Assembly: GCA_041665325.1 (NCBI GenBank)
Contig: JBAYJB010000001.1
Span: 61,824-125,823, forward strand
Direction: 5' to 3'
Source of the DNA: Minisyncoccota bacterium
GTDB taxonomy: Bacteria > Patescibacteriota > Minisyncoccia > Phycocordibacterales > PALSA-1337
Length of the DNA stretch: 64,000 bases
A program made the translations under genes and the position numbers. The notes beneath the pieces were generated by a model. The model saw only the letters and a program-made list of their open reading frames with translations, had not been told where the DNA came from and made no database searches. Of the stretch, positions 8,001-45,186 are shown piece after piece (positions within the stretch are counted from its first letter, which is position 1; each line of letters begins with the position of its first letter).

Positions 8001-8067
8001 CGTACTACTAGACCATACTTTTCATGTTTTGACTTAGAAATTTTTGAGCACCGGAGACATGCCACCT
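8001..8067 (+). repeat. Conserved intergenic motif, copy A (GACCATACTTTTCATGTTTTGACTTAGAAATTTTTGAGCACCGGAGACATGCCACC)
   Basis: Near-identical blocks occur at 9104..9160 and 49241..49314, with a partial copy at 17824..17850. Confidence 0.6.
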
Positions 8068-9103: not shown

Positions 9104-9160
9104 ACCGTCTACATTACTGGACCATACTTTTGTGGTTTTGACTTAGAAATTTTGTGGAGA
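9104..9160 (+). repeat. Conserved intergenic motif, copy B
   Basis: CTGGACCATACTTTTGTGGTTTTGACTTAGAAATTTTGTGGAG. Confidence 0.6.
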
Positions 9161-9237: not shown

Positions 9238-9266
9238 TTGCAAAACACGCCATTTTTTGCTATAAT
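9238..9266 (+). promoter_or_regulatory. Consensus-like sigma70 promoter TTGCAA-N17-TATAAT for gyrA
   Basis: The -10 ends 10 nt before the gyrA ATG at 9277 and there is no SD, which implies a near-leaderless mRNA. Confidence 0.55.
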
Positions 9267-9276
9267 TGTCTGACGA

Positions 9277-11742
9277 ATGCCCAAGAAATCCGAGGAAAAA
9301 GCCCCTGAAAAAAAGCCGGTTCATACCGGCATTGTCGCGCGCTCGATCACGACCGAGATGCGCGAGTCCTTCCTCGACTATGCCATGTCGGTCATCACCG
9401 ACCGTGCGCTTCCAGACGTCCGTGACGGCCTCAAGCCGGTGCACCGCCGCATCCTCTACGCCATGCACCAGAATGGCCTCAACTATTCCGCCAAGTTCCG
9501 CAAGTCAGCCGTACCAGTGTCAGAGACCATGGGTAACTACCACCCTCATGGCGACGCCGCCATCTACGAGTCGCTGGTCAAGATGGCCCAGAATTTCACT
9601 ATGCGCTATCCGCTCATCCACGGCCAGGGCAACTTCGGCACGGTAGACGGTGATCCGGCTGCCGCCATGCGTTATACCGAAGCCAAGATGTCCCGTCTGG
9701 CCGCCGAGCTCCTGCGCGATATCGACAAGGACACCGTCAATCTTCGTCCCAACTACGATGGCACCAAGAAGGAGCCCGAAGTCCTGCCGACCGCCGTCCC
9801 GAATCTACTCTTGAATGGCACGCTCGGCATCGCCGTGGGTATGGCGACCAATGTCGCTCCGCATAACCTCCGCGAAGTCCTCGACGCTACTACCCATCTC
9901 ATCGACAATAAGGACGCGACCACCGAGGATATTCTCCAGTTCATCAAAGGCCCTGATTTCCCGCTCGGCGCCGTCGTCTACGGGGAGAAGGACATCCACC
10001 ATGCCTATACCACGGGTCGTGGCGGCATGACGGTACGCGGCGAAGCCGAGATCACCGAGGATAAGAAGGGTCAATATCAGATCATCATCACTTCGATCCC
10101 ATTCCGCGTCAACAAGAGCGAGCTCATCATGAAGATCGCCGACCTGGTGCGCGAGAAGGTCGTCGAGGGCGTACGTGCCCTGCGTGATGAGTCTGACAAG
10201 GACATGCGCATCGTGATCGACCTCAAGCAAGGTTCGTATCCCGAGAAGGTCCTCAACCTCCTCTACAAGCACACCCAGCTCGAGGAGACTTTCCATATGA
10301 ATACTGTGGCGCTCGTCCACGGTGTGCCGCAGACTCTGTCTTTGAAGTCGATCTTGCAAGAATTTGTGACGCACCGCATCGAGGTCATCCGCCGTCGCAC
10401 CCAGTTCGACCTCAATGCCGCAGAAGCCCGCGAGCACATCTTGCTCGGCCTCAAGAAAGCTCTCGACCATATCGACGAGATCATCAAGCTCATCCGCGCT
10501 TCCAATGACGTAGCCGATGCCAAAGCTGGCCTCATGAAGAAGTTCAAGTTCAGCGACCTCCAAGCCCAGGCCATCCTCGACATGCGCCTGCAGAAGCTGG
10601 CCGGCCTCGAGCGCAAGAAGGTCCTCGACGAGCTCAAGGAGGTCCAGGCCCTCATCGAAGACCTCAAGAGCATCCTGGGTAGCGACAAGCGCGTCCGTAC
10701 TATCATCAAGATTGAGCTTGCCGAGATCAGGGACAAGTATGGCGACGAGCGCCGCACCCGCATCGTCAAGCACTCCGTCAAGGAGTTCAACCCCGAGGAC
10801 CTCATCGCCGACGAAGAGTCCGTGCTGGTCCTCACCAAGGGCGGCTATATCAAGCGCACTGATCCGTCAGAGTACCGCAAGCAGAAGCGCGGCGGCGTCG
10901 GCGTCGTAGACCTCGACACCAAGGAAGAGGACTTCATCTCCCATATCATCTTCGCCACTACGCACAACGACCTTCTGTTCTTCACCGACAAAGGCAAGGC
11001 CTATCAGATCAAGATGTACGAGATCCCGGAGGGCAAGCGCGCCACCAAGGGCAAGTCGATCATGAATTTCCTGTCTCTTTCCGATGGCGAGCGCGTGACT
11101 TCGATCCTGCCGATGCCCAAGAACAAGAAGGAGGCCGAGGGTCTCTCTCTTATGATGGTCACCAAGGGTGGCACCGGCAAGAAGTCCGCCGCCAAGCATT
11201 TCAAGGATGTGCGCCGGAGCGGCCTCATCGCTATCACCCTCGACGCCGGTGATGAGCTCATCTCCGTGTCGTTCGTGACCAAGTCCGACGAGGTGGTCAT
11301 CGCTACCCGCGAAGGGCAGTCCATCCACTTCAAGGAGTCCGATGTCCGCGAGATGGGTAGGAATGCCGCCGGCGTGCGCGTCATGAAGCTCGAGAAGGAT
11401 AGTGTCATCTCGGCCGATGTCGTCTCCAAGGAAGCCAAGAATCCTTGCCTCTTCGTGATGGGCGCCAACGGCTATGGCAAGAAGACCGAACTTTCCGAAT
11501 ACAAAGTCCAGAACCGCGGCGGCTCCGGCATCCTCACTATGAATGTCACGCCCAAGACTGGTCCGCTCATGGCAGCCAAGGTGGTCACCGACGACGAGGA
11601 AGAGGTCGTGGCGATGTCCAAAAAGTCTCAAGTCATCCGCGTCGATCTCAAGGAGATCCCGACCTTGTCGCGCGCCACCCAGGGCGTGCGCGTCATGAAG
11701 CTCCGTGAAGGGGATTCGTTGGCGAGTCTGATCTGCTTGTAA
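9277..11742 (+). CDS. gyrA: DNA gyrase subunit A
   Basis: 821 aa with the active-site region [10 protein letters not shown] and a C-terminal beta-pinwheel repeat region. Confidence 0.95.
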
Positions 11743-13646: not shown

Positions 13647-14087
13647 ATGAAGACTAAACTCATCATTCTCGCTCTCCTCGTCACGAACTTCATGCCAATG
13701 ATCGCGCCTTTGGTATCGGCCCAGAGCCAGGTGCCGGAGGTGAATATCAATGATGAGGGATTCAAACTGGTCATATGCGATGGCCCGGGAGGCCCGCTCG
13801 CCAAGAGCGACCCGAATTACAAGGTTTGTGACTTCCAGGCTCTGATGGATCAGGTCCAATATCTCATCAATGTCATGATCGTCCTCGGGGTGATCGGCGC
13901 GCTAGTGGGTTTTGCTTACTCCGGTTATCTCCATATCACGGGCGTTCCCGGCAACATCACCAAGGCCTGGGGGATATTCAAGAAAGTCGCCATCGGCTTC
14001 GTCATCATGCTCACGGCATGGTTCGTCGTTTATCAGATCCTAGAGTGGCTCACTGGCAATGCGGCCAACTATCTCGGCAATGGTTAA
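13647..14087 (+). CDS. VirB2/TrbC-like pilin family protein (paralog 1 of 6)
   Basis: Sec signal peptide (..APLVSA|QS), about 40-aa mature segment, then two long hydrophobic helices separated by a short polar loop. Confidence 0.6.
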   Translation: MKTKLIILALLVTNFMPMIAPLVSAQSQVPEVNINDEGFKLVICDGPGGPLAKSDPNYKVCDFQALMDQVQYLINVMIVLGVIGALVGFAYSGYLHITGVPGNITKAWGIFKKVAIGFVIMLTAWFVVYQILEWLTGNAANYLGNG

Positions 14088-14094
14088 AAATATC

Positions 14095-14571
14095 ATGAAG
14101 AACACCAACATCATCAAATATCTTGCAGGCGCGTTTTTACTCATCGTCCTACTTCTTGGTTCGAATAGTTTCGTCTTTGCCCAGGGCACAACCGTGACTC
14201 CCGTGTCTAATACAGGGAGTCAGACAGTGACACCAGGATCATCCGGCAGTTTCTCACTCCAGAATCCCTTGAGCAACAAATACAAGACTGTCGGGGGACT
14301 GGTTGGCGGCTTCATGGAATATTTCTCATATCTGGTCATCCTGTTCGCTGTCCTGGCGCTCATATATGTCGGCCTACAGTTCGTCCTGGCGCAAGGGAAA
14401 CCGGACAAGATGAAGGAGCTCAAGGGTTGGCTCGGCTGGATCATCGTCGGCGTGGCCATCGTGATAGGGGCGCGCATCCTGGTCAATGTGGTCATCAACA
14501 CCCTGCAGGCGACGGGCGCGGTGAACCCAAATGTTATTAACAGCGCGAACAATGCCCTGAAGAACCAGTAG
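14095..14571 (+). CDS. VirB2/TrbC-like pilin family protein (paralog 2)
   Basis: MKNTNIIKYLAGAFLLIVLLLGSNSFVFA|QG signal peptide followed by two hydrophobic helices (LVILFAVLALIYVGLQFVLA, WIIVGVAIVIGARILVNVVI). Confidence 0.6.
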   Translation: MKNTNIIKYLAGAFLLIVLLLGSNSFVFAQGTTVTPVSNTGSQTVTPGSSGSFSLQNPLSNKYKTVGGLVGGFMEYFSYLVILFAVLALIYVGLQFVLAQGKPDKMKELKGWLGWIIVGVAIVIGARILVNVVINTLQATGAVNPNVINSANNALKNQ

Positions 14572-14607
14572 TGCTAGTATTTAATCGTATTAATATATAT
14601 AAACATT

Positions 14608-15027
14608 ATGTTCAACAAGACTAAAACAGCATTATTGTCGATTTGTACCTTCTCACTTCCTGCTCTGGTTTCGGCTCAGGTAACGCTTGATCATGTGAGT
14701 GAAACTGGCGTGACAGTCCGCGGGGCTGTTGGCGGGACTACACTTAGCAGCATAATCGATATTATCATCTCGTATCTCGGCCAGATCCTCTTCCTCCTCA
14801 TGGCCTTGGCCGTGGTCATGTTCGTCTGGTATGTCATCAAATACTTCATCAGGGCTGATACAGACAAGAAGGAGGCCGGATCATATGTCATGTACAGCCT
14901 CATCGGCTTCTTCGTCATCCTCTCGCTCTGGGGCATCATCAATATCCTTGGCAACAGCTTCAACATCGGCAACGCGGATAACACTTCCGCGTCCTGGGCC
15001 AACTTCAAGAACCTAATGCCGAAATAA
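14608..15027 (+). CDS. VirB2/TrbC-like pilin family protein (paralog 3)
   Basis: Signal peptide ..PALVSA|QV and two TM helices. Confidence 0.6.
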   Translation: MFNKTKTALLSICTFSLPALVSAQVTLDHVSETGVTVRGAVGGTTLSSIIDIIISYLGQILFLLMALAVVMFVWYVIKYFIRADTDKKEAGSYVMYSLIGFFVILSLWGIINILGNSFNIGNADNTSASWANFKNLMPK

Positions 15028-15032
15028 CTGAT

Positions 15033-15395
15033 ATGAAGAAGATCACCACAGCGCTATTCATCATGTCCCCTTGGATGGTTTTTGCCCAAGACCGAGTCAC
15101 GGATGCCAATTCTCTGTTCGACAAGCTCACTGATCTGGGCAACATGGCGATCTGGCTGCTCATCGGCCTAGCCGTCGTCTTTATCGTCTGGAATTCCGTC
15201 TTGTTCATCTTTCACGCTGCGGATGATACCAACCGCGCCAAATATCGCAGTGCCATCCTCTGGGGGATAGTTGGTTTGTTCATCATCATGTCCATCTGGG
15301 GTTTGGTGGCTATCTTGAGCAATACTTTTGGTACATACAACGAGGATCATGCCGGCGGATTCTCCAAAGATGTGGATAGTCTCATCCTGAAATAG
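15033..15395 (+). CDS. VirB2/TrbC-like pilin family protein (paralog 4)
   Basis: MKKITTALFIMSPWMVFA|QDRVTDANSLFDKLT.. Close paralog of the 15511 gene (ILWGIVGLF.I.SIWGLV.ILSNTF). Confidence 0.65.
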   Translation: MKKITTALFIMSPWMVFAQDRVTDANSLFDKLTDLGNMAIWLLIGLAVVFIVWNSVLFIFHAADDTNRAKYRSAILWGIVGLFIIMSIWGLVAILSNTFGTYNEDHAGGFSKDVDSLILK

Positions 15396-15442
15396 CGCTC
15401 GGATCCGTAATCCACAGCCGCCTTCTGTTCGGCCCAGAAATC

Positions 15443-15494
15443 TGGTATAATCAGGCCAAGCTAAATTGTCGCATTAATTAGCAGTAGCTTAATA
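15443..15494 (+). promoter_or_regulatory. Promoter candidates for pilin paralog 5: extended -10 TGGTATAAT (15443..15451) and TTGTCG-N17-TTAATA (15466..15494)
   Basis: Both read directly from the sequence. Confidence 0.3.
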
Positions 15495-15510
15495 AATATC
15501 AATAATTAGT

Positions 15511-15870
15511 ATGAAAAAGCTCATCGCTACCCTCGCCGTTCTCGCTCCTTCGGTCGCCTTCGCCCAGCGCGCGGTCACCGACGTCAACTCTCTTAGCCAG
15601 AAATTGACAGGCATCGGCAATACGGTCATCGGCATCCTCATCGCCGTCGCCGTCATCTTCCTCATCGTCAATGTCGTCTTGTTCATCGTCAATGCTGGCG
15701 GTGATGATCGCAAGAAGTATCAGAGCGCCATCCTCTGGGGCATCGTCGGCCTGTTCGTCATCCTCTCGATCTGGGGCCTCGTCAACATCTTGAGCAACAC
15801 ATTCAACACTCAGAATCAGGCGCCGATCCAGGATTTCCCAACTAACCCATATCCGGTTCCGGTTCAATAG
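15511..15870 (+). CDS. VirB2/TrbC-like pilin family protein (paralog 5)
   Basis: MKKLIATLAVLAPSVAFA|QRAVTDVNSLSQKLT.. followed by two TM helices. Confidence 0.65.
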   Translation: MKKLIATLAVLAPSVAFAQRAVTDVNSLSQKLTGIGNTVIGILIAVAVIFLIVNVVLFIVNAGGDDRKKYQSAILWGIVGLFVILSIWGLVNILSNTFNTQNQAPIQDFPTNPYPVPVQ

Positions 15871-15894
15871 CATCTTCGTGGGGCGCGCCAATCC

Positions 15895-16188
15895 ATGTTT
15901 TCTCACTTCATAACTATAGCCCAAGCCGCGACTGATGACGCGGCTTTTGGCAAGGCGCTCGATCCGATCATCGCCAATATCGTCAATCCTCTGGTGATGC
16001 TGGCTTTCGCTGTAGCGGTCGTGGCCTTCGTCTACGGAGTGATCCAGATGATCATCCATGCGACCGACGCCCAACAGCACAAGAATGGGCGCTTGAGCAT
16101 GATCGGCGGCCTGATCGGCATGTTCATCATGTTCTCGGCCTGGGGCATCATCAATATCATCTCCAATACGGTCAAGGGGTTCCAGTAG
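15895..16188 (+). CDS. VirB2/TrbC-like pilin family protein (paralog 6); signal peptide not evident from this start
   Basis: The core is conserved (LVMLAFAVAVVAFVYGVIQM.., IGGLIGMFIMFSAWGIINIISNT) but the N-terminus lacks an obvious Sec signal. It may be degenerate or use another start. Confidence 0.45.
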   Translation: MFSHFITIAQAATDDAAFGKALDPIIANIVNPLVMLAFAVAVVAFVYGVIQMIIHATDAQQHKNGRLSMIGGLIGMFIMFSAWGIINIISNTVKGFQ

Positions 16189-16222
16189 GCCTGTAGATAT
16201 TTACTGGGCAAAATTTTGGAGC

Positions 16223-16262
16223 AAAAAAACGGGCCGCTGGAGTAAACTCCTGCGGCCCGTGT
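16223..16262. terminator. Intrinsic terminator hairpin CGGGCCGC..GCGGCCCG with flanking A7/T-rich tracts, between the convergent pilin array and the SPFH operon
   Basis: A7 tract upstream (U7 on the minus strand) and a T-rich stretch downstream. Confidence 0.55.
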
Positions 16263-16278
16263 GGTTTGTCCCCTTGCC

Positions 16279-16707
16279 CTAGGCTTTGGGGACGATCTTC
16301 CAGGCAACCTTGCCTGTCTTGATGGCTTGACCGGGCATTACGCGCCATTCCGTGACATTGGCAGGCGGTGTGACCAGTTTATTAGTCGTACCCTCCTTCC
16401 AGTTTCGCGGATAGAGCGTGTATACCTTGGCCGGATCCTTATCCAGCCGGATCTGCCACCAGACATCATCGGTCAACAGATTTCCGACAACGCTCTTGGT
16501 GTTGTCGAGACAGATCACTTCCTTCCACTGGGTATCGTCGATATCGACGACGCCGGAGGTGGGGGAGGTGGCGACAGCGGCTTTCCGCTGGGAGCTGTTC
16601 TCTAGGAGATCGGGGTTGCGGATGGCCACCCCGACGCCGTAGACGATGAGGCCTAACAGCATCACGATGGCTAGAACCTTCATGGGATTGTTGGTGGTAG
16701 TTTTCAT
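16279..16707 (-). CDS. Hypothetical membrane-anchored protein, translationally coupled to the SPFH gene (ATGA overlap)
   Basis: 142 aa with N-terminal TM (VLAIVMLLGLIVYGVGVAI). A role as an NfeD-like partner is speculative. Confidence 0.45.
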   Translation of the reverse strand: MKTTTNNPMKVLAIVMLLGLIVYGVGVAIRNPDLLENSSQRKAAVATSPTSGVVDIDDTQWKEVICLDNTKSVVGNLLTDDVWWQIRLDKDPAKVYTLYPRNWKEGTTNKLVTPPANVTEWRVMPGQAIKTGKVAWKIVPKA

Positions 16708-25741: not shown

Positions 25742-25854
25742 GGAGCAATGTGACATGACAATCTCGAGACACGGATATTTTCCTGCTGGAAAATTCCTCG
25801 TGCTCGCGCCAGTCGCGCTCGCAAGTTCTCGAGATTGTCATGTCACATTGCTCC
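25742..25854. repeat. Variable-stem/conserved-core palindromic element, copy 2 (28-bp perfect arms + 57-bp core)
   Basis: The arms GGAGCAATGTGACATGACAATCTCGAGA and TCTCGAGATTGTCATGTCACATTGCTCC are perfect reverse complements. The core is identical to copy 1. Confidence 0.85.
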
Positions 25855-30940: not shown

Positions 30941-31051
30941 GCACCGAGAGAACATGACCTCGAACTGCACGGATATTTCCCTGCTGGGAAATTCCTCGTG
31001 CTCGCGCCAGTCGCGCTCGCAAGGCAGTTCGAAATCATGCTCTCTCGGTGC
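30941..31051. repeat. Variable-stem/conserved-core palindromic element, copy 3 (27-bp arms + 57-bp core)
   Basis: The arms GCACCGAGAGAACATGACCTCGAACTG and CAGTTCGAAATCATGCTCTCTCGGTGC pair with three transition mismatches. The core hairpin carries compensatory changes (ATTTCCC-TGCT-GGGAAAT versus ATTTTCC-TGCT-GGAAAAT in copies 1 and 2). Confidence 0.8.
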
Positions 31052-33161: not shown

Positions 33162-33176
33162 TCCAGTTCACCCATC

Positions 33177-33205
33177 GGGGCGGAAGCGATTCCGCCCCTT
33201 TTTGT
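33177..33205 (+). terminator. Intrinsic terminator GGGGCGGAAGCGATTCCGCCCC + T5 (module T1, copy a)
   Basis: A near-identical copy is at 34665..34693. Confidence 0.7.
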
Positions 33206-33306: not shown

Positions 33307-34647
33307 ATGCCAACCAACGGCATCTCAACAGCCTCAAGCAAGCTCATCCGTGGCAGCACCTGGTCGATCATCAAGATCGAAGGGGCGGCCACAAATCAAA
33401 ATCGTGTGGAAGGCAAGGTCACCCTGTATAACTCCTCCGACCGGTCAAGTGATGTGAACGCCTGGACCGCTGTCAGGCACGGCACTGATCAGTGGGCCAT
33501 CACAGGCCAAGGCGCGCGCATGTCTACCGGCGAGCGAGTGCGCTCGCCATTCACATATCCGTTCGTTCTTATGAAGTCTGTCAATGACGATGTGAGGGCG
33601 GAACTGTCGCACTGGATACGCATCAACGGTAAGGCTCTCTTCAAACAAGGGTCCGAGTTGTATGACAGGAGGGTGCATGCATCCTCATCGGGCAATGGCA
33701 GGCTTCCTTCAAACGGAGATCTGCCGCTTACGGACACGTTGTCCAGTCAGCAGGCGACCGCCGCTGTCAATGCAACCGGGAGACTCGAAGTCATCGAAGT
33801 GCTAGTCTCGGAGATCCAGCCGTTCGAGGGTCAACCCCGTGAAGAATTCACCAAATCCGACTTGAGAGAGATCAGGGAGAGCCTGAGGCAGGAGGGCCAA
33901 CAGCAGATCATCTTCGTCACTCCGGTCAGCGGTGTGAGGGGGAAGAGATGGGAGCTTGTCGACGGCGAGCGCCGTTACCGCGGCGCCGTGGCGGCCGGTA
34001 TCCGGACCCTGACCGCCGTGGTCAAGCGCTTCAAGAACAAGGATGAGCAATTCTGGAGCTCATTCACCATGAATTGGAATCGGCGTGATCATACCCCGTA
34101 TGAGAATATCCGAGCTGTCGAACGGGCTATGAAGTCCGGCAAGACGGTTGCCCAGATTCGCACCGCCACCGGCCGTTCGGACTGCTGGGTCTATCAGAAC
34201 CTGCAGTTGCAAAATCTGGATCGCTCACTGCGCGCGCTTATGAAGCAGTCAGTCCCCAAAAGCGACCGCATGTCGTTCGGCATCGCCAACAGGCTTTCGC
34301 GGGTGCCGAGGGCCGAGGACCAGCTGCGTATCTGGAATGTGGCCAAGCAACAGCTCACTCCCAGCCTGCGCAAGCTCAAGGTGGATCAGCTGACTGCGGT
34401 CATCCTGGACAAACTGCCTCAGAAGGGCCGTAAGCGCAAACCTAGCGATAACGGGGTGCGAATCCTGCGTTGCCTACAGACGGCCGAAGCCGACCAGACC
34501 TTCATCAGTCGGACCACGGAAGAGGACCTGCGGGCATTCATGATGAATACCACCATGGACTTCAACCGCAGCGATCTTCTTCCTCGCGTCAGGGCGGTTG
34601 CCGCCGCCTGGGTGGAGCTCGCCAAGCGGGTCAGAAAGCTCAAGTGA
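33307..34647 (+). CDS. ParB/Srx-fold nuclease-like protein with HTH and N-terminal extra domain (not the partition ParB)
   Basis: ParB N-domain motifs (IEVLVSEIQPFEGQPR.. GVRGKRWELVDGERRYRGAVAAG) and an HTH (KTVAQIRTATGRSDCWVYQNLQL). Confidence 0.6.
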   Translation: MPTNGISTASSKLIRGSTWSIIKIEGAATNQNRVEGKVTLYNSSDRSSDVNAWTAVRHGTDQWAITGQGARMSTGERVRSPFTYPFVLMKSVNDDVRAELSHWIRINGKALFKQGSELYDRRVHASSSGNGRLPSNGDLPLTDTLSSQQATAAVNATGRLEVIEVLVSEIQPFEGQPREEFTKSDLREIRESLRQEGQQQIIFVTPVSGVRGKRWELVDGERRYRGAVAAGIRTLTAVVKRFKNKDEQFWSSFTMNWNRRDHTPYENIRAVERAMKSGKTVAQIRTATGRSDCWVYQNLQLQNLDRSLRALMKQSVPKSDRMSFGIANRLSRVPRAEDQLRIWNVAKQQLTPSLRKLKVDQLTAVILDKLPQKGRKRKPSDNGVRILRCLQTAEADQTFISRTTEEDLRAFMMNTTMDFNRSDLLPRVRAVAAAWVELAKRVRKLK

Positions 34648-34664
34648 CTCAGTAAGCATAGTTC

Positions 34665-34693
34665 GGGGCGGAAGCAATTCCGCCCCTTTTTTG
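34665..34693 (+). terminator. Intrinsic terminator GGGGCGGAAGCAATTCCGCCCC + T6 (module T1, copy b)
   Basis: Duplicate of 33177..33205 with a single mismatch in the loop. Confidence 0.7.
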
Positions 34694-34805: not shown

Positions 34806-35525
34806 ATGAGCCCAAAAAAGCTCGATCTGTCCGCGTTCAGGATCCATGACCTCGCCGAAGCCCTCGACCAGAACTCATGTGTGATCAAACTGTGTCTTTG
34901 GGGCCCGTACCCCAATGTCGAGACCGGTTCTATCGATGACATCAAAACCATCGATGAGGCACGCAAGATGATGCGCAAAGCGCAATCCCGTGAGCGCCGC
35001 CGGCTCATCGCGAAGAAGTGGTTCGGACTGTGCACCTGCATGTCCGAGCTCCAAGGGCCATTCAGTGACTTTGGCTCTCCCGACCTCTATCATGACGACG
35101 ACCTCCGTCATTTCCGAGATACTCGCGCGAATGAGATGGCCGATAGCGCCATCAACAGTGATGATTTTGGGCTGATTTACGAGTGCTGGAGAGCCAGTCC
35201 TCACGGCTTCATCCAGGACAAGCTAACCTTGGCACTTCTCGAGAAGAGCCGTATCGTCTGTTGGGGCATGCTTGTGATCGATAATCTCGAGAAGACAGGT
35301 CGTATCCACAGCGAATCAACGCAGTGGATATACTGGGCCTTCATGCAGAAGATGGCAGAACTGGCTGACCGGAAACAGGCTAAGGAGCTTCTCGATGTCA
35401 TCCAGAGGCACCGCCGCTTCGATCACGAGAACCCGACAGTCTCCTTTCTTGTGCAGAAAGTGGCAACTGCTTATCGGCATAAGTTCTTCGGACCCATCTT
35501 ACGCGAAGGCGGCGTCGAGGTTTGA
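34806..35525 (+). CDS. Hypothetical protein (239 aa); C-terminus ..PILREGGVEV shared with gene 35912..36517
   Basis: No recognisable family. The 3' end and terminator form repeat module T2a (35493..35562). Confidence 0.45.
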   Translation: MSPKKLDLSAFRIHDLAEALDQNSCVIKLCLWGPYPNVETGSIDDIKTIDEARKMMRKAQSRERRRLIAKKWFGLCTCMSELQGPFSDFGSPDLYHDDDLRHFRDTRANEMADSAINSDDFGLIYECWRASPHGFIQDKLTLALLEKSRIVCWGMLVIDNLEKTGRIHSESTQWIYWAFMQKMAELADRKQAKELLDVIQRHRRFDHENPTVSFLVQKVATAYRHKFFGPILREGGVEV

Positions 35526-35532
35526 ATTGTTC

Positions 35533-35562
35533 AGGGGCGCTCCCACGGGCGCCTCTTTTTTG
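35533..35562 (+). terminator. Intrinsic terminator (GC hairpin GGGGCGCTCCCACGGGCGCC + T6), module T2 copy a
   Basis: A duplicate is at 36537..36567. Confidence 0.6.
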
Positions 35563-35577
35563 TTATACAATCAACGT

Positions 35578-35811
35578 ATGAAGGAAAAACTCATCACGGT
35601 GAGGGTCTCCGCTGGATCGCGTAGCGAATCTGTCGAGCGATTGGCCGCCGATATCTACAAAGTCCATGTTCGCACAGTACCCGAGAAGGGGAAGGCCAAT
35701 AAGCGCGTCCTTGAGCTTATCGCCGAGCATTTTGGCGTGGCGAAGTCGCGGTTGGAGATTGTGAGAGGAGGGGTGGGCAGGGAGAAGAAGATCAGGATTG
35801 ACATGGCCTAG
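35578..35811 (+). CDS. DUF167 (YggU-like) family protein
   Basis: MKEKLITVRVSAGSRSESVERLA..VHVRTVPEKGKANKRVLELIAEHFGVAKSRLEIVRGGVGREKKIRI is the characteristic DUF167 pattern. Confidence 0.6.
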   Translation: MKEKLITVRVSAGSRSESVERLAADIYKVHVRTVPEKGKANKRVLELIAEHFGVAKSRLEIVRGGVGREKKIRIDMA

Positions 35812-35911
35812 TTAAAATCGTATTTTAACTCCAGCTGCTCATTAAAAGAGTTGGTCAAGTTCCAACCGCTTGCGCATGAAGCGCGAGAACAGTGGCGGCT
35901 AAGGAGTACCC

Positions 35912-36517
35912 ATGAAAAATGACCTCAAGTTCAAGAAGACTACGCGTATCAGCTGGAACAGCTGGAACGACGGCACACCCGATAGAGATGCCTTTCCTGT
36001 GCCTCTGACATTGTCAAAAATACCGTTAGCGGCACGTGGATCATTCCTCGGTTTTGATATTCGCTCGTCTGTCTATCTCCACGGAGCGACCGTAGAGGCA
36101 ATCAGCGGAAAGCTTGGCAAGATCAATATAGTGATCGCTGCCCATCACAATGACAGGCCGCTTGGTGCCGGTGATCTTGTCAGTATTGCAAAGGGTTTGG
36201 CTACGCTCAACTCCGATATCTTGGAGTACCGAGGATTTCCTCTGAATAACCAAGGACCGTTCTTATTCGACTTGCGGGTTCCGAACGGCGCCGGATTCTG
36301 CGAGACTGCGGTCGAGCATGTCTCCAAAATCGTCACATTCCTTGGTGTCACAGGTGATCGTTGGTTCAGACATGCCATCAAGATTAAGCAATCGACGCTC
36401 GTTCTCGTGAAAGGGAACTGGATCGAATACGAGGATTATCTCGTCGGGAAGTTCCCGATCCGTCTGCCTAACTGCGCCGGAGAGCCCATCTTGCGTGAAG
36501 GCGGCATCGAAGCTTGA
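35912..36517 (+). CDS. Hypothetical protein (201 aa); C-terminus ..PILREGGIEA shared with gene 34806..35525
   Basis: No recognisable family. The 3' end and terminator form repeat module T2b (36486..36567). Confidence 0.45.
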   Translation: MKNDLKFKKTTRISWNSWNDGTPDRDAFPVPLTLSKIPLAARGSFLGFDIRSSVYLHGATVEAISGKLGKINIVIAAHHNDRPLGAGDLVSIAKGLATLNSDILEYRGFPLNNQGPFLFDLRVPNGAGFCETAVEHVSKIVTFLGVTGDRWFRHAIKIKQSTLVLVKGNWIEYEDYLVGKFPIRLPNCAGEPILREGGIEA

Positions 36518-36536
36518 AGTGTGATTTGGATCGTTC

Positions 36537-36567
36537 AGGGGCGCTCTCACGGGCGCCTCTTTTTTGT
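36537..36567 (+). terminator. Intrinsic terminator, module T2 copy b
   Basis: GGGGCGCTCTCACGGGCGCC + T6. Confidence 0.6.
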
Positions 36568-36585
36568 TTGTGCTAGGATTCTTGC

Positions 36586-36909
36586 ATGCCACTCATCAAT
36601 CTAGAATATGACAAGGAGATAGTTTCAGACGGGGATATTAGGATTCTATCTCAAGCTGTTCGTGACATTGTTTCAGAAACTACGGGCATAGAAGACGTCT
36701 TTGTCTATGCCAATGCTTCACAGATACGTATCAGAGTCGCTCCAGTAGAGATATTTGTCAGGATGACAGCCAAGAAGATCAAGAATGAAGACGAACTTAT
36801 AGGTACTATTAAATCTAAACTTAAGGAATGGAAACAAGGCTCCCGTTTTAAGCACCCGATAAATTTGACTCTAATACCCATGAATTGGAAGGTTGAGATA
36901 GGGATATAA
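36586..36909 (+). CDS. Hypothetical protein, possibly tautomerase-superfamily-like (starts Met-Pro); AT-rich gene
   Basis: MPLINLEYDKEIVSDGDIRILSQAVRDIV.. The Pro1 and length resemble 4-OT-like proteins, but the assignment is weak. Confidence 0.3.
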   Translation: MPLINLEYDKEIVSDGDIRILSQAVRDIVSETTGIEDVFVYANASQIRIRVAPVEIFVRMTAKKIKNEDELIGTIKSKLKEWKQGSRFKHPINLTLIPMNWKVEIGI

Positions 36910-36914
36910 CCAAC

Positions 36915-37499
36915 ATGTCCCTCACCCTCATCTTCGAAGCCCATGGCACGACATCTGATAACGAAGCCCACCTATCGTCGGGCTGGTATGATGTGGCCCT
37001 ATCTCCCAAGGGCGAACAGCAGTCGCGGGAGATGGGCGAGCGTTACAGGGACGACCATTTCGACGCCATATTCTGCTCGGACTTACAGCGGGCCTGGAGA
37101 AGCGCAGAGATTGCATTTTGTAAGAATAAAGTTGGAAAGCTTGTTACAGACAATGATTTTCTTAAGGCGGAATGTAAGTTTCCAATAATAACCGATGCGC
37201 GCCTGCGTGAATGCAATTATGGCGACCTGACGCAGAAACCGAGCGAGCTCGTGGACGCGGAGAAGACGAAGCGGATCAGCGTGCCATTCCCGAACGGCGA
37301 GAGCTACGAGGAGACCAATGCTCGGATGAAGTCGTTCCTAGAAGACCTGAAGAGGGACTATGACGGCAAGAGGGTCATGGTCATCGGCCACCGCGCGACG
37401 CAGTACGGCATCGAGGCGTATGTCAATGGTATGACCGTCGAAGAATGTCTGGCCAAACCATTCAAATGGGAGCCGGGGTGGGTTTACAAAATCAAATAG
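36915..37499 (+). CDS. Histidine phosphatase superfamily (phosphoglycerate mutase-like) protein; its 3' end forms att-like repeat copy 0
   Basis: LIFEAHGTTSDNEAHL (degenerate RHG motif) and VMVIGHRATQYGIE (second His motif). Confidence 0.55.
   Translation: MSLTLIFEAHGTTSDNEAHLSSGWYDVALSPKGEQQSREMGERYRDDHFDAIFCSDLQRAWRSAEIAFCKNKVGKLVTDNDFLKAECKFPIITDARLRECNYGDLTQKPSELVDAEKTKRISVPFPNGESYEETNARMKSFLEDLKRDYDGKRVMVIGHRATQYGIEAYVNGMTVEECLAKPFKWEPGWVYKIK
37458..37499 (+). repeat. att-like repeat R3, copy 0 (3' end of phosphatase gene: CCATTCAAATGGGAGCCGGGGTGGGTTTACAAAATCAAATAG)
   Basis: Related copies are at 38206..38249 and 38971..39028. Confidence 0.55.
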
Positions 37500-37513
37500 G
37501 GTAAACTATCGGT

Positions 37514-38068
37514 GTGAATCCCGAAAAGAAACAGTTACAGAATATTGCTTTTGTTGATGGCCAGAATCTCCATCTTGGTACAAGGGGGAACTCTTGGGCC
37601 ATTGATCACATAAAGTTCAGAACATACCTCAAAGAGAAATATAAGATTGACGAGGCCTATTATTTCCTCGGTTTTATATCTACAGGTGAACAGGATCTTT
37701 ACGATAGGCTTCAAAAAGCTGGATTTATACTTAGTTTTCGTGAGCACCCAGCAAATCTGAAGGGTAGTAAGAAGGGAAATGTTGATTCAGATATCATTTT
37801 TAGCCTTATGAAGAAGCTAGTTGAGAATGAGCCGTTTGATAAAGCCTTCATCATATCGGGTGATGGGGATTATAAAAAATTAGTCGATTTTCTCATAAAA
37901 AGAGTTAAATTTGGGAAAATGCTTTTTCCAAACAATGGTAATGCATCATCACTTTATAAAGCGTTAGGTGGTGAATACTTCGATTTTCTTGATTCTCCGG
38001 ATGTGAGGGCAAAGATTGAATATACCCATGTATCGCGTAGTGCTCCCATAATGAAAAAGGCCCCTTAG
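37514..38068 (+). CDS. NYN-domain (LabA/DUF88, PIN-like) protein; GTG start; AT-rich
   Basis: IAFVDGQNLHLGTRG.. and FIISGDGDYKKLVDFL are the NYN signature. Confidence 0.65.
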   Translation: MNPEKKQLQNIAFVDGQNLHLGTRGNSWAIDHIKFRTYLKEKYKIDEAYYFLGFISTGEQDLYDRLQKAGFILSFREHPANLKGSKKGNVDSDIIFSLMKKLVENEPFDKAFIISGDGDYKKLVDFLIKRVKFGKMLFPNNGNASSLYKALGGEYFDFLDSPDVRAKIEYTHVSRSAPIMKKAP

Positions 38069-38205
38069 GTATTGCACCGTTCGGGTCCTTCTTCGTAGTT
38101 ATACATGACGAATATACCCGTTTTATATTACAAAGTCAAGTTTTGTGGGTGTGGATTATTTCGCTATTTAAAGGCTAGAATATGTAGGTATCCACACTAG
38201 GCCGA

Positions 38206-38249
38206 GATTTCAAATGGCAGCTGTGGTGGAAGTATGAGGTGAGGTAACG
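38206..38249 (+). repeat. att-like repeat R3, copy 1 (GATTTCAAATGGCAGCTGTGGTGGAAGTATGAGGTGAGGTAACG)
   Basis: Shares TTCAAATGGCAGC.G.GGTGG..TATGA..TGAGGTAA with copy 2 and TTCAAATGG.AGCCGGGGTGGGT with copy 0. Confidence 0.55.
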
Positions 38250-38334
38250 TCCTTGCATTTTGGTCTAATCTGTGGTTTCATCATTCATGAACTTAGCTGA
38301 AGAATTTAACCAATGGAAAAGGAGATATAGCTCT

Positions 38335-38919
38335 ATGAAAATGTCAGATTTCGCGGCTGTAACAGCCGTAGACCCACACGAGGAAACTGCGTTAGCTTAC
38401 CAGTATCCCCTTCCTCTAATCAGGACGAACTTCGTCAAACGTTTCCTCCTGAAGCGTGGTATACCTGCCAACGAGTATTATCACATGGATGTGTTCGACT
38501 GTGCTCGCAGCCCGCAATCACATGTAGGTCCATTCGTGAACGCGATCGATTTCTTGGTGCCTGACGGCACGATCGTGCTTGCGGCGCGTGATGGAGCGAT
38601 CATCGACATCAAAGAGGATTCTTCCGAATGGGGGGACAATCCCCGGTTCCGCGATAAGCTCAACTACGTGACTGTTGATCACGGAAATGGCGAGTTCTCG
38701 CAGTACTGCCACCTACGCAAAGGATCGGTCGCGGCTCTCGGTCTCAGTCTCAATCGGCTTGTCTCGGCCGGCCAGCAGATCGCCGTGGTTGGCAAAACCG
38801 GCTGGACCGATCGAGATCACCTGCACTTCATCGTCTTCAAGAAGGTTGAGGGCGGCGATGGCTTCAAGAGTCTGAAGATTCAATTCATCGGTAGTACCGA
38901 TTTTGACCCAAGCGTCTAA
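38335..38919 (+). CDS. M23 family (LytM-like) metallopeptidase
   Basis: HxxxD (HMDVFD), VTVDHGNGEFSQYCHL, GKTGWTDRDHLHF. The start at 38335 has an AAGGAG RBS 10 nt upstream. The longer ORF from 38272 overlaps repeat copy 1. Confidence 0.7.
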   Translation: MKMSDFAAVTAVDPHEETALAYQYPLPLIRTNFVKRFLLKRGIPANEYYHMDVFDCARSPQSHVGPFVNAIDFLVPDGTIVLAARDGAIIDIKEDSSEWGDNPRFRDKLNYVTVDHGNGEFSQYCHLRKGSVAALGLSLNRLVSAGQQIAVVGKTGWTDRDHLHFIVFKKVEGGDGFKSLKIQFIGSTDFDPSV

Positions 38920-38970
38920 GGGTCGATCCAACCACTCTCCCGGGTGACTGTAATGGTCATCCGGTTTTTT

Positions 38971-39028
38971 ATTCAAATGCATTTCAAATGGCAGCCGGGG
39001 TGGGTGTATGAATTGAGGTAATAAAACC
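38971..39028 (+). repeat. att-like repeat R3, copy 2 (ATTCAAATGCATTTCAAATGGCAGCCGGGGTGGGTGTATGAATTGAGGTAATAAAACC)
   Basis: Includes an internal partial duplication, ATTCAAATG. Confidence 0.55.
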
Positions 39029-39090
39029 TAAAACTCGGTTCGTTTGATTTAAATAAAAGTTATCGTTATACGTTTCTCAAATATCCTTAT

Positions 39091-39118
39091 TTGACATAAG
39101 AAGTATGAGGAATATAAT
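39091..39118 (+). promoter_or_regulatory. Consensus sigma70 promoter TTGACA-N16-TATAAT driving the AT-rich three-gene operon
   Basis: Both hexamers are perfect. The ATG at 39150 is about 25 nt downstream of the predicted TSS. Confidence 0.6.
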
Positions 39119-39149
39119 ATAACAATAACTATAAATATACTCTAACAAC

Positions 39150-39536
39150 ATGGCGTTAAAAGACCTAATACAAAATACAAATTCAACAGAGAAGGATTTA
39201 GAAAATATTCTAAAGAGTAGAGTAAAACTGCTCAAGATCAATGACCTTTACTCTGTCCACATAGAAAGGTCATTTTCTAAGACATTGGATCAAAAAAACA
39301 AAATTCTTTTCTATTTGGCAGGCAAACTAGCTTGGCAAATCTTAGAGAAGAATCAGATTTGGGTAAAACCAAAGGAGTTAGAATCTGAGCTTGGTATTAG
39401 TGGGGGTACAATAAGACCAAGTCTCCTTGCTTTCAAAAAGCATAAGTTTGTTGAGTATAACAAGAAAGATAAAGGCTATCGATTAACAGGAGTTGGTTTG
39501 TCTGAGCTTATAAAGTTCCAAGAGGAGCTTGAGTAA
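39150..39536 (+). CDS. Hypothetical winged-helix (wHTH) protein, gene 1 of the AT-rich operon
   Basis: 128 aa. PKELESELGISGGTIRPSLLAFKKHKFVEYNKKDKGYRLTGVGLSEL resembles MarR/ArsR-type wHTH. About 33% GC. Confidence 0.45.
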   Translation: MALKDLIQNTNSTEKDLENILKSRVKLLKINDLYSVHIERSFSKTLDQKNKILFYLAGKLAWQILEKNQIWVKPKELESELGISGGTIRPSLLAFKKHKFVEYNKKDKGYRLTGVGLSELIKFQEELE

Positions 39537-39541
39537 ATATC

Positions 39542-39970
39542 ATGGATAACGAAACGCTAAAAGAGATAAACAAAAAGCTTGATAAGATACTTTTTATTCT
39601 TGGTGGGCAAGTAAAAGAACCTATGAGAAGTAGGAGCCCCTCATCAGTAAAGTCACTACAAAAAGGTACTACTTTTGACGCGCACACCATTAACTTTAAT
39701 CAAAATAATCGGGCATTTTTCAAAAAATATATTGGAGACATGACCGGTCCAGAGAAGTATACTCTGACCTTGGCTTTTTGCGCAAAAGGGAAAATAGGTC
39801 TACCTGTAGAATCAGAAAAAATAAATAACCTCTGGAATAAACTGTTTGTAATTTTCGGAGGTAAGCTAACTTCACGTACTTATGCGACTAGGGCAAAAGA
39901 AAAGGGTTGGATCGACTCTAATAAGCATGGTGAATATTTTCTAAGAGATCAGTGGGCAGCGATATTCTAA
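39542..39970 (+). CDS. Hypothetical protein, gene 2; carries a domain paralogous to the N-terminus of gene 3
   Basis: MTGPEKYTLTLAFCAKGKIGLPVESEKINNLWNK...YATRAKEKGWID aligns with MTGEEKFLALGVIISQEKIDLDISASDVRSKWSK...YYRAESKGWVI of the next gene. Confidence 0.45.
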   Translation: MDNETLKEINKKLDKILFILGGQVKEPMRSRSPSSVKSLQKGTTFDAHTINFNQNNRAFFKKYIGDMTGPEKYTLTLAFCAKGKIGLPVESEKINNLWNKLFVIFGGKLTSRTYATRAKEKGWIDSNKHGEYFLRDQWAAIF

Positions 39971-39977
39971 GTAAACC

Positions 39978-40742
39978 ATGTTTGATTATAAACACAAAAG
40001 TTTATTAGCTTTATTAAGCGGACTACCCTTAGATTCAATGACTGGGGAAGAAAAGTTCCTTGCGTTAGGAGTGATAATTTCTCAGGAAAAGATTGATCTC
40101 GATATCTCTGCTTCAGATGTAAGGAGTAAGTGGTCTAAGGGTTTACTTGGGAAATATAATCCAGGTTATTACTACCGGGCCGAATCAAAAGGGTGGGTAA
40201 TTCCCGATGATGCAGAGCATAATAAGTTTATTGTTACCCCTGAGGGTTTTAAACATCTTAAAACCACCATAGGCCATGAAGAGAAAGACGAACTACTAAA
40301 TCCAAAAGAAGTAAGAAAGACAGGTAAACTTTTTATTTTCAACAAATCAAGCGCGTACAGCTTCGATAAGTTTATTAGGAATATTCTAAAAAATGCTAAA
40401 AGTAGGGTTTTAATAGCAGATTCATATGTAGATGAGACAATATTTGATAATCATCTTGAAACTTTACCCAACGACCTAATTATAAAAGTCCTCTTTATGA
40501 ATGACTCTGGCTCATTCGGCGCAAGAATGAAAAGATTCAAGGTTCAATTTAAGAAATCAGATTTCAAAAAGTATAAAGATTTACACGATAGATTTATTAT
40601 TGTAGATGATATTGCTTATATTATAGGGCCATCAATAAAAGATGCTGCGGCCAATAGCCCAGCAATTGTTGTGGGTCTTAATCAACAGGAAACTTTGCTC
40701 ATTAGTAATTTTTTTAGCGACATTTGGAAATTAGGCAAATAG
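39978..40742 (+). CDS. Hypothetical two-domain protein, gene 3: N-terminal domain shared with gene 2, plus a C-terminal PLD-like (HKD-variant HxR..D..GPS) putative nuclease domain
   Basis: The C-terminal ..KYKDLHDRFIIVDDIAYIIGPSIKD fits HxK-x4-D-x6-G(S)xN with K replaced by R, and there is a preceding RVLIADSYVD strand. This is an inference from motif spacing only. Confidence 0.4.
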   Translation: MFDYKHKSLLALLSGLPLDSMTGEEKFLALGVIISQEKIDLDISASDVRSKWSKGLLGKYNPGYYYRAESKGWVIPDDAEHNKFIVTPEGFKHLKTTIGHEEKDELLNPKEVRKTGKLFIFNKSSAYSFDKFIRNILKNAKSRVLIADSYVDETIFDNHLETLPNDLIIKVLFMNDSGSFGARMKRFKVQFKKSDFKKYKDLHDRFIIVDDIAYIIGPSIKDAAANSPAIVVGLNQQETLLISNFFSDIWKLGK

Positions 40743-40768
40743 ATTTTGTTTGCTGATATACTGTCAGC

Positions 40769-41923
40769 ATGGAACCCCTCGCCAACAAAATACGACCACA
40801 GACGCTCAAGACCTTCGTCGGTCAGGAGCATCTGGTCGGTCCGGGCAAGCCTCTGCGCAAAGCTATCGAGGACAAGCATCTCTTCTCGTTCATCTTCTGG
40901 GGGCCGCCAGGAGTCGGCAAGACCACGCTCGCCCGCATCTATGCCCGTGCCCTCGATGCCCGGCTCTATGAGCTCTCGGCCGTCTCGGCGGGCAAGGACG
41001 ACATCCGCAAGATCGTGGAGGCGCCGGATACGCTCATGGATGCTCGGCCCAAGGTCCTATTCCTCGACGAGATCCACCGCTTCAACAAGGCTCAGCAGGA
41101 CTTCCTGTTGCCGTATGTGGAGTCGGGCAAGCTGACCCTCATCGGCGCTACGACCGAGAATCCTTCGTTTGAGATCATATCGGCTCTCTTGTCGCGCTGT
41201 AGGGTATTCGTGCTCAAGTCCTTGTCCGAGGAAGACCTCCGGGCCATCGTGAAGAGCACCAAGCTAAAGGTGCCCAAGGAGGCTCTGGAATGGCTGGTGG
41301 CACTCGCGAACGGCGATGCCAGGATCGCCATCACGGCTCTCGAGAATTGCGAGCGCCTCTACGGCGCGGTCACGCTCGCTCACCTCAAGGATACCTTCGA
41401 GCACGCCTTCATCCGCTTCGACAAGAAGGGCGAGGAGCACTACGACACTATTTCTGCGTATATAAAGAGTATGAGGGCTGGCGATGCTGATGCGGCTCTT
41501 TACTACCTCGCACGAATGATTGAGGGCGGTGAAGATCCGAAGTTTATAGCTAGGAGGATGGTCATATTTGCCTCGGAGGACATCGGACTGGCTCAGCCGA
41601 CGGCGCTGGTAGTCGCCAATGCTGTCTTTGCGGCCGTCGATGTCATCGGCATGCCTGAAGCGCAGATCAATCTGGCGCATGGCACGGCCTACTTGGCTCT
41701 AGCCGCCAAAGACCGTAGCGCTCATGACGGCTATTTCGAGGCCCTCGATGATGTGAAGAAGACGGGGAACTTGCTTGTGCCTCTCAAGATCAGGAATGCA
41801 CCGACCAAGCTCATGAAGGAGATGGGTTATGGCAAAGACTATAATAAGTACGATAAGAGCGGATATCTACCGGAGAAACTGAAAGGGAAGAGGTATCTAA
41901 AGACGAAAAAGAAGGGGGATTGA
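40769..41923 (+). CDS. rarA: Replication-associated recombination protein A (MgsA/RarA AAA+ ATPase)
   Basis: [46 protein letters not shown]. Confidence 0.85.
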
Positions 41924-44631: not shown

Positions 44632-45141
44632 TCATTCCTTTTGCATGGAAATTTCTTTGATAAATTCCAAGCTATTTCTACAAACTCTAGTGACAAACTT
44701 TCTTTTTCCAGTTTTCTGAACGGAGCTCTGAGTCGTACTCCTGTACCCCAGGCTATCGATCATGATTTGCACATCCTGAGAAAGTCCGTGGATGATGGTG
44801 GTAAAATTTGCGTAAGTATATGATCTATCTTTATAAACCGACCCGTCAGTTTCAAATAAGCCTCGTAAGCAATTACGAACATATTCCTTTTTGCCAAATA
44901 CCCACGCAGGAACCCTGATGTTCTGTTCAAACTTTGAACCAGCAAGAGCCTTCCAACCCAGAATTGCTTCCAGCTCATTCGAATATACACATACATTGGA
45001 AAGATTGCCATTTCCAATAGCGAAACCTATGACATAGGCAGTGTTTGAACTACGGTGATCCATTGTGCCAGAGGCGGGACTTGCACCCGCAAGCCTTTCG
45101 GCGACCGATTTTGAGTCGATTGTGTTTGCTAATTTCACCAC
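44632..45141 (-). CDS. Free-standing LAGLIDADG-family homing-endonuclease-like protein (motif 1 degenerate, motif 2 intact); GTG start
   Basis: YVIGFAIGNGNLS (acidic residues replaced) and NCLRGLFETDGSVYKD (canonical). The motifs are only about 56 aa apart, so the N-terminal half looks truncated or degenerate. Confidence 0.55.
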   Translation of the reverse strand: MVKLANTIDSKSVAERLAGASPASGTMDHRSSNTAYVIGFAIGNGNLSNVCVYSNELEAILGWKALAGSKFEQNIRVPAWVFGKKEYVRNCLRGLFETDGSVYKDRSYTYANFTTIIHGLSQDVQIMIDSLGYRSTTQSSVQKTGKRKFVTRVCRNSLEFIKEISMQKE

Positions 45142-45186
45142 TCTGGCCTAGGCACAGTCTACAATAACTTATGTTAAAATACACGC

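Follow-up and report, generated by a model that had tools for sequence, protein, structure and literature searches.

How do genes come to be stacked, one behind another, into the last codons of a conserved gene in a stretch of DNA in which no recombinase is found? The question is raised by a 64,000-nucleotide segment of the genome of an uncultured Minisyncoccota bacterium (contig JBAYJB010000001.1; the whole segment is hereafter called the window), in which a histidine-phosphatase gene is separated from the core gene rarA by an NYN-domain gene, an M23 peptidase gene, and a three-gene operon. The Patescibacteria, to which this organism belongs, have very small genomes and are not amenable to genetic study, and to our knowledge little has been learned about how they gain genes. 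The locus can be read as a record of insertions, from newest to oldest, with one breakpoint placed within a few bases, and comparison with related genomes supports the view that small foreign cassettes have accreted at the junction between the phosphatase gene and rarA by stacking into the last codons of the former. The locus shows one fixed site, flanked by two core genes, to be the place of entry for toxin-antitoxin-like and defense-like genes, with no recombinase nearby.

The record is carried by three related copies of the phosphatase 3′ end: the last 41 nucleotides (nt) of the gene (c1) recur twice downstream as non-coding copies (c2 and c3), with start-to-start spacings of 748 nt (c1-c2) and 774 nt (c2-c3), in a common reading frame and with a stop codon at the matching position in each. 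An earlier note on this DNA had placed three copies resembling attachment (att) sites here, the first being the phosphatase 3′ end, and had found the two non-coding copies most alike; sequence and frame confirm the former, and pairwise identities confirm the latter (85% for c2-c3, against 61% for c1-c2 and 73%, or 30/41 counted by hand, for c1-c3). The shortness of the copies (41 nt) and the 61% identity of c1 to c2 might suggest chance or low-complexity similarity, but this reading is refuted and keeps virtually no probability: the core TTCAAATGGSAGCYGKGGTGG, sought in the window with one mismatch allowed, has three matches, all exact, against none in 100 dinucleotide-preserving shuffles; frame and stop position are kept; an nhmmer profile drawn from the real 3′ ends of 28 phosphatase genes detects c3 (E=3.5e-7) and also c2 (E=0.027); and the related contig L191 has a remnant at the same place. 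Nor is the structure an assembly artifact, because it is found again in an independent European Nucleotide Archive (ENA) assembly (L001), with which the window is identical, and in an NCBI entry for a metagenome-assembled genome (MAG; P0121, P0241); the repeat observation is real. As regards the 28-bp dif-like XerC/XerD sites of Xer-dependent elements, the repeats have by eye no dyad symmetry except a short codon-dictated CATTTCAAATG motif, and they are plainly coding-derived. Rfam gave no match in 36500-41000 at E<=1.

The same junction was followed into relatives through two collection scans and exact-protein look-ups, which gave five informative junction states; every one of the nearest rarA relatives is a Patescibacteria MAG. 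In L084 the site is empty, the phosphatase stop codon being followed by GC and then by the rarA ATG, and an empty site of the kind that the earlier note had hoped related genomes would reveal is thereby at hand. L191, a 4.5-kb contig with a phosphatase 86% identical to that of the window, carries the NYN cassette, a c2-like remnant, an AAA_15/21 ATPase gene, and an unknown gene ahead of rarA. In L069, the closest rarA relative found (84%), the order is phosphatase, Zeta toxin, an open reading frame (ORF) of 56 amino acids (aa), a frameshifted remnant of 64-70 nt (E=1.4e-9; 88.5% identical to the genuine gene end in L011), GrpB, and rarA. L143 belongs to a distant lineage and a low-GC organism, and its phosphatase is only ~44% identical; here the gene end and a ~35-nt copy of ~90% identity enclose a DUF3800 gene, an independent instance of the bracket. 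L082 has three genes between the core genes, one ClpP-like and two unknown, and is the only filled site without a displaced tail, such tails being present in the window, L191, L069, and L143. In the last three, as in the window, the tail copies are in frame with an aligned stop and the target ORF is intact; no further remnants were found among ~80 other phosphatase loci. Remnant or homology lengths differ (~35, 41-51, 47, and 64-70 nt), and the repeat spacing of bracketed cassettes is similar (~750-865 nt). The cargo overall comprises the NYN gene with a candidate antisense RNA, the M23 gene, the operon with its PLD-like PDC-S05 protein, Zeta toxin, GrpB, ClpP-like, DUF3800, and an Abi-like AAA ATPase, several of which fall in toxin-antitoxin or defense-related families. 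This range of states shows the junction to be a cassette hot spot.

One breakpoint could be mapped, by aligning the window and L191 position by position. Toward the 5′ end of the phosphatase gene the two differ by ~6-18% in each block of 50 nt; over 37231-37470 they differ by 3.3%, and over 37471-38223 by only three mismatches in 753 nt (0.4%; 99.6% identity); the last 24 nt of c2 then contain seven mismatches, and past the c2 stop there is no homology until rarA (77% identical). Left of ~37470, c1 is lineage-specific, and right of it c1 is common to both. The nearly identical unit amounts to about one repeat period, each genome having a c1-c2 spacing of 748 nt. The left arm of c2, up to ATTTCAAATGGCAGCTG, is identical to L191 and goes with the NYN cassette; the right part is each lineage's own, reading (P)GWKYEVR and stop in the window, which has a single G-to-T change here, and GWGYEVK and stop in L191. 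Accordingly, c2 is a mosaic with a recombination breakpoint at 38223/38224. The crossover appears to be limited to AGCYG, at 37471-37475 / 38219-38223, with the left limit set by two mismatches (37463 and 37470), the only ones nearby. One reciprocal crossover joining the gene end to a copy on the incoming DNA would give this pattern, with reciprocity only suggestive because the left limit consists of two mismatches in an already unusually similar region; the low divergence for ~240 nt upstream of c1 would fit a homologous-recombination (conversion) tract. That the repeats are displaced target 3′ ends bounding inserted DNA, as had been proposed, is borne out by the in-frame copies, by the brackets around other cargo in L069, L143, and L191, and by this mapped c2 junction. 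The nearest homolog of the M23 gene elsewhere is 58% identical, so that no second copy of its cassette is available for breakpoint mapping.

The tails give the order of accretion. Among the 120 closest phosphatase homologs, the endings [KGVS]YEVK,.YEV, and VYELK are common, and VYKIK is found only in the window protein and in P0122/L191, both of which are followed by an NYN gene. The remnant tails KYEVR, VYELR, and GYEVK resemble natural tails of the clade; the remnants are therefore former native tails, and the working VYKIK tail of the window was imported with the newest, NYN, cassette. The phosphatase gene and rarA are shown by these comparisons to have been adjacent originally, and c2 and c3 to be former working phosphatase tails; that a new tail came with every insertion and pushed the previous one downstream follows from the same patterns. 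We infer the order of insertion, and likewise the enzyme, by comparison. At the outset the phosphatase gene, ending in c3, would have been followed by the operon and rarA. M23 DNA with a phosphatase 3′ end of its own would next have recombined at the conserved FKWQPGW-coding stretch of the gene, which would then have ended in c2, with c3 moved downstream; finally the 748-nt NYN unit would have entered, supplying the c1 tail (VYKIK and stop) and displacing c2. The product would be equal for a small circle entering through one crossover (Campbell-type) and for linear DNA entering through two, and the predicted circle junction joins the c2 left arm to the c1 tail (GATTTCAAATGGCAGCCGGGGTGGGTTTACAAAATC).

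The earlier note had counted three repeat-delimited cassettes with a sharp drop in G+C (GC) content. The NYN and M23 intervals are indeed delimited by repeats, but the operon is hot-spot cargo without a remnant on the rarA side, where the nhmmer profile, in agreement with the note, finds no terminal tail copy. The stretch GATATACTGTCAGC just before rarA, conserved in the window, L191, L069, and L082 (all filled sites), was considered as a tail remnant and rejected, as it resembles a −10 box. The drop in GC applies to the NYN gene (0.35-0.40) and the operon (0.28-0.40), against ~0.52-0.65 in host genes; at 0.54-0.57 the M23 gene is compositionally host-like rather than foreign. The third, PLD-like operon protein matches the candidate defense family PDC-S05 (PADLOC, E=2.1e-20). 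Within the phosphatase gene itself, a 51-nt in-frame low-GC insert (~37119-37169, ~17 residues, CKNKVGKLVTDNDFLKA) is missing from L191, L069, and L028. Exact-protein look-ups returned no record for the window phosphatase or for P0001 (an NYN protein, 99% identical).

Two peculiarities of phosphatase homologs were recorded along the way. In L011 (126-758) the gene is split over three frames by short insertions with its 3′ end, WQPGWSYEV and stop, intact, and it may be a pseudogene or a carrier of small inserted elements. The homologs P0124, P0127, and P0128 (L192-L194, 6001-6630) run 15-20 residues past the usual stop (e.g., PGWKYELEEEGGSRAVAEGQDFTV), as though other sequence had taken the place of the normal tail and stop.

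Table. Features of the phosphatase-rarA junction and its upstream neighborhood (window positions)
Feature	Position	Strand	Evidence or remark
Second bracket, upstream	35492..36568	+	Encloses a DUF167-like ORF and ORF 35912-36517
Histidine-phosphatase gene, 194 aa	36915..37499	+	Pfam His_Phos_1 E=9.5e-30; target gene
c1	37459..37499	+	Working gene 3′ end (attL-like); FKWEPGWVYKIK, then stop
NYN cassette unit	37471..38223	+	Imported tail and stop, NYN gene, antisense-RNA region, c2 left arm
NYN-domain gene, 184 aa, GC ~0.36	37514..38068	+	Pfam NYN E=2.7e-13
Candidate convergent antisense small RNA	38048..38139	-	Promoter-like TTGACT-17-TATATT at 38139-38111; hairpin and U-run at ~38094-38048
c2	38207..38247	+	Displaced phosphatase tail KYEVR and stop, non-coding; FKWQLWWKYEVR, then stop; mosaic
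M23 peptidase gene, 194 aa in public records	38335..38919	+	Pfam Peptidase_M23 E=2.9e-15; ORF opens at 38272
M23 terminator-like hairpin	38940..38964	+	Followed by the stray partial core
Stray partial core, ATTCAAATG	38971-38979	+	After the M23 terminator-like hairpin
c3	38981..39021	+	Oldest displaced tail VYELR and stop, non-coding; FKWQPGWVYELR, then stop; WQPGW motif intact
Operon promoter, perfect sigma-70-like TTGACA-16-TATAAT	39091..39118	+	Promoter scan
Three-gene low-GC operon (winged-helix-like, unknown, PLD-like)	39150..40742	+	Weak Pfam PLDc_2 and HVO_A0261_N matches
GATATACTGTCAGC, ~15 nt before rarA ATG	40753..40768	+	Right edge of variable region; possibly rarA −10 box
rarA/mgsA, conserved right flank	40769..41923	+	Pfam MgsA_C E=2.5e-50

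As to what inserts the cassettes, we favor host homologous recombination over a dedicated integrase as the more likely agent, and we hold that reading with about even confidence. The substrates of host recombination would be DNA taken up from relatives or circles that had looped out where two copies recombined; with overlapping pieces of its target on both sides, a cassette could then enter any genome with the phosphatase gene, and the short remnants that survive would be those too short for the cassette to loop out again. The window contig encodes DprA, which in transformable bacteria is connected with the uptake of DNA. In support, brackets are also found around other, unrelated targets (in L065 the rarA 5′ end, and in the window the 3′ end and terminator of ORF 34806-35525), with homology over all targets ranging from 35 to 118 nt, and inspection by eye reveals no shared arm motifs on the left side of the remnants. 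Several observations weigh on the other side. The NYN unit is bounded at equivalent c1 and c2 positions, within AGCYG, which a site-specific crossover predicts and homologous recombination only permits; the right homology arm, ~20-45 nt and imperfect, would be a poor RecA substrate; the same 35-70 nt of one gene have been used by four cargoes in three lineages; neither a circular form nor a donor genome was seen; and the recombinase survey spans 64 kb, so that a recombinase acting in trans could lie elsewhere. Such an enzyme, whether of the tyrosine or the serine recombinase family, might be supplied by another part of the genome or by a helper element and act on integrase-less site-specific elements whose attP site mimics the phosphatase 3′ end, and the points just listed on crossover position, short imperfect homology, and shared entry site speak for it, as do the direct repeats (stop codon included) at each bracketed cassette, the reconstitution of the gene every time, an NYN unit of about one repeat period with mismatches confining the crossover to a few bases, and the similar spacing of the repeats. 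We nevertheless judge it somewhat unlikely, because no recombinase was found in the window or in any cassette, homology length varies by event without common arm motifs, divergence is already reduced ~240 nt upstream of c1, the NYN module stands elsewhere without a phosphatase-like site, similar brackets occur at unrelated targets, and a scan of viral contigs for the core revealed no attP-bearing element. The earlier claim of accretion by site-specific elements thus stands as regards accretion; a site-specific integrase is not established. A bolder version, in which Patescibacteria possess an integron-like system without an adjacent integrase (0.75-0.87-kb single-gene circles with a 40-70-nt tail mimic and a fixed ~5-nt crossover, made by a recombinase or a host enzyme, the phosphatase 3′ end being a shared entry site for toxin-antitoxin and defense cargo across lineages), seems to us quite unlikely. 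An integron mechanism of the classical type was rejected, as the remnants have no hairpin potential and an IntI gene is absent at the entry site: single-strand DNA folding gave no attC-like hairpin for c1, c2, or c3 (z of -0.68, -0.28, and -1.56 against shuffles) or for the L069 and L143 remnants (0.07 and 1.20).

Two further explanations concern the origin of the repeats. The remnants could be leftovers of complete second phosphatase copies, in which a block of gene and cargo was duplicated or re-inserted and its 5′ part deleted. A precedent of sorts exists, in that L207/L208 have a Zeta-toxin and 56-aa module immediately ahead of a complete phosphatase gene, and the module of L069, 73-75% identical to it in nt sequence, is followed directly by the remnant; this suggests that cargo could first gain a phosphatase-tail arm through 5′ loss of a downstream phosphatase copy, and the variable remnant length would agree. 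As a general account we consider it very unlikely: all five remnants are 35-70 nt of a possible ~530, and random end-points would not cluster in this way without strong survivorship; 5′ phosphatase fragments were found at none of the loci examined; and c2 in the window and L191 has an identical left edge and differing tails, which requires a crossover inside the remnant anyway. More improbable still is that the NYN nuclease cuts cassette-free sites and spreads by repair-templated homing, as free-standing homing endonuclease genes do, with the repeats as by-products. In its favor are the great size and good conservation of the NYN family, the position of members between conserved genes (e.g., nusG and rplK), and the target duplications at two insertions (window/L191 and L065), yet the M23, Zeta-toxin, and DUF3800 cassettes are bracketed alike without an NYN gene, most NYN contexts lack a duplication, NYN domains are known as RNases, and the convergent antisense RNA points instead to a toxin-antitoxin-like module. 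Should host recombination prove sufficient, a bracketed cassette would be a self-contained, portable insertion device; should a hidden recombinase be responsible, a small integron-like platform would exist in a major uncultured lineage.

The search for a recombinase covered the Pfam matches of checked genes over nearly the whole length of the window, among which no recombinase family appeared, in keeping with the earlier statement that the window lacks an integrase; likewise, no tyrosine or serine recombinase was found among the Pfam matches of the cassette genes of L069, L082, L143, and L191. A 381-aa ORF beside tRNA-Tyr was considered as a tRNA-adjacent integrase and rejected, being alanine racemase. 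No IntI gene lies next to the entry site, the upstream neighbors being a 107-aa ORF without a Pfam match in the window and HTH_17 and Fic genes in L191. The viral-contig scan, made with AARTGGCARCCNGGNTGGG, gave 22 matches and no attP candidate; most belong to an unrelated phage protein family (KWQPGWVPS), and the one match that seemed non-coding (L183) lies within a high-GC phage ORF in another frame. A search of the literature on Patescibacteria islands and integrases found nothing specific.

The anatomy of the locus resembles that of integrative and conjugative elements (ICEs) and cis-mobilizable elements (CIMEs), and its population pattern that of minimal mobile elements; it differs from the former in having no recombinase in the sequence examined, and from the latter in its duplicated gene ends and stacked cassettes. 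Work attributed to Pavlovic et al. 2004 and Bellanger et al. 2011 reportedly describes tandem accretion of ICEs and CIMEs at the fda 3′ end of Streptococcus thermophilus (the ICESt1/ICESt3 family). As there, serial direct repeats of a protein-gene 3′ end separate integrase-less units between att-like copies, the gene is reconstituted stepwise, and the oldest copy lies furthest from it; unlike there, no integrase-bearing partner is seen, each unit holds one gene and is tiny, at 0.75-0.87 kb, the copies are diverged and unequal, recombination tracts appear to enter the target gene, and the host is an uncultured Patescibacterium. Among the marks of ICEs, CIMEs, and integrative and mobilizable elements (IMEs), the locus has target-end repeats with an intact ORF and an unoccupied site (L084), and it has no recombinase in the 64 kb or the cassettes. 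The minimal mobile elements of Neisseria, from work credited to Saunders and Snyder, are said to be alternative cassettes between two conserved genes, swapped by transformation and flanking homologous recombination. Fixed conserved flanks, genome-specific whole-gene cargo, an empty state, the lack of mobility genes, and a host carrying DprA are all shared features, and alternative cargo between conserved flanks is found across the window, L191, L069, L082, and L084. Duplicated gene ends, however, are not known from minimal mobile elements, whereas here the target is duplicated, several insertions each leaving a displaced copy of the last 35-70 nt of the left flank, and the cassettes pile up instead of being exchanged for one another. 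Integron cassette arrays share promoter-poor single-gene units of ~0.75 kb, short site-like repeats, and a fixed entry point, but IntI is lacking here and the repeats are gene-tail copies, not attC. Finally, the tycheposons of Prochlorococcus, in work attributed to Hackl et al. 2023, reportedly include integrase-less satellites and arrays of partial tRNA genes in islands; the hot-spot islands, the partial target-gene copies separating cargo modules, and the modules without a recombinase are alike, and the differences are that the target here is a protein-gene 3′ end rather than a tRNA and that no recombinase-bearing element occurs at the loci examined.

The NYN gene deserves separate mention, since together with its candidate antisense RNA it points to a very widespread mobile module in these bacteria. 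At E<=1e-10 the family has 3419 homologs, of which the best 120 are 66-99% identical, and its members occupy many different places in genomes. In L187 (3743-4671), an NYN gene at 4001-4561, 74% identical to that of the window, lies on the opposite strand between nusG and rplK, interrupting the conserved secE-nusG-rplK cluster; such behavior is in line with a selfish mobile gene. The idea that the module generally duplicates its target was rejected, there being no duplication in L187, L195, L201, L202, L204, and L206, and L131 having merely a weak 23-nt match; at other sites the module is accompanied by no phosphatase-like sequence. In L065, by contrast with these, an NYN gene (43% identical) lies within a 107-118-nt duplication of the rarA 5′ end (9253-9370 and 9986-10103), with a 35-codon rarA stub upstream and intact rarA downstream, a mirror image of the phosphatase-tail bracket. 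The hairpin of the candidate RNA overlaps the NYN stop codon and folds at -18.5 kcal/mol (z=-2.5). The ~75 nt past the NYN stop are conserved above the level of the NYN gene itself (L187, L188, L195/L197, L200, L206, L131), and paired substitutions in the stems are seen by eye across NYN loci. Type I toxin-antitoxin pairs have a convergent antisense small RNA of the sort predicted here.

A second gene-end duplication lies just upstream of the phosphatase gene, bracketing an insertion of ~1 kb. The last ~30 coding nt and the terminator hairpin (44 nt, 93% identical) of ORF 34806-35525 (35492-35564) recur at the end of ORF 35912-36517 (36496-36568). Paralogy of the two ORFs was rejected, as their proteins share only the nine C-terminal residues PILREGG[VI]E. 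Other repeats in the window are recorded as side observations. A 29-nt terminator hairpin (33175-33203 and 34663-34691, 97%) stands on either side of a 446-aa ParB_N-domain gene (33307-34647) that is missing from the corresponding region of L069. A 39-nt repeat (8006-8044 and 9115-9153, 90%) surrounds a lactamase_B gene, and the syntenic L195 has two different NYN genes at roughly both positions of this repeat. A 56-nt direct repeat (25770-25825 and 30968-31023, 96%, 5.2 kb apart) encloses genes for a trypsin-like peptidase, ClpB, tRNA-Tyr, and alanine racemase. A LAGLIDADG-domain ORF (44632-45141, minus strand) overlaps with its upstream end the same-strand tRNA-Leu(caa) gene (45065-45147), and a row of six small T4SS_pilin-domain paralogs, in which segments of 69-89 nt are repeated, lies at 13647-16700.

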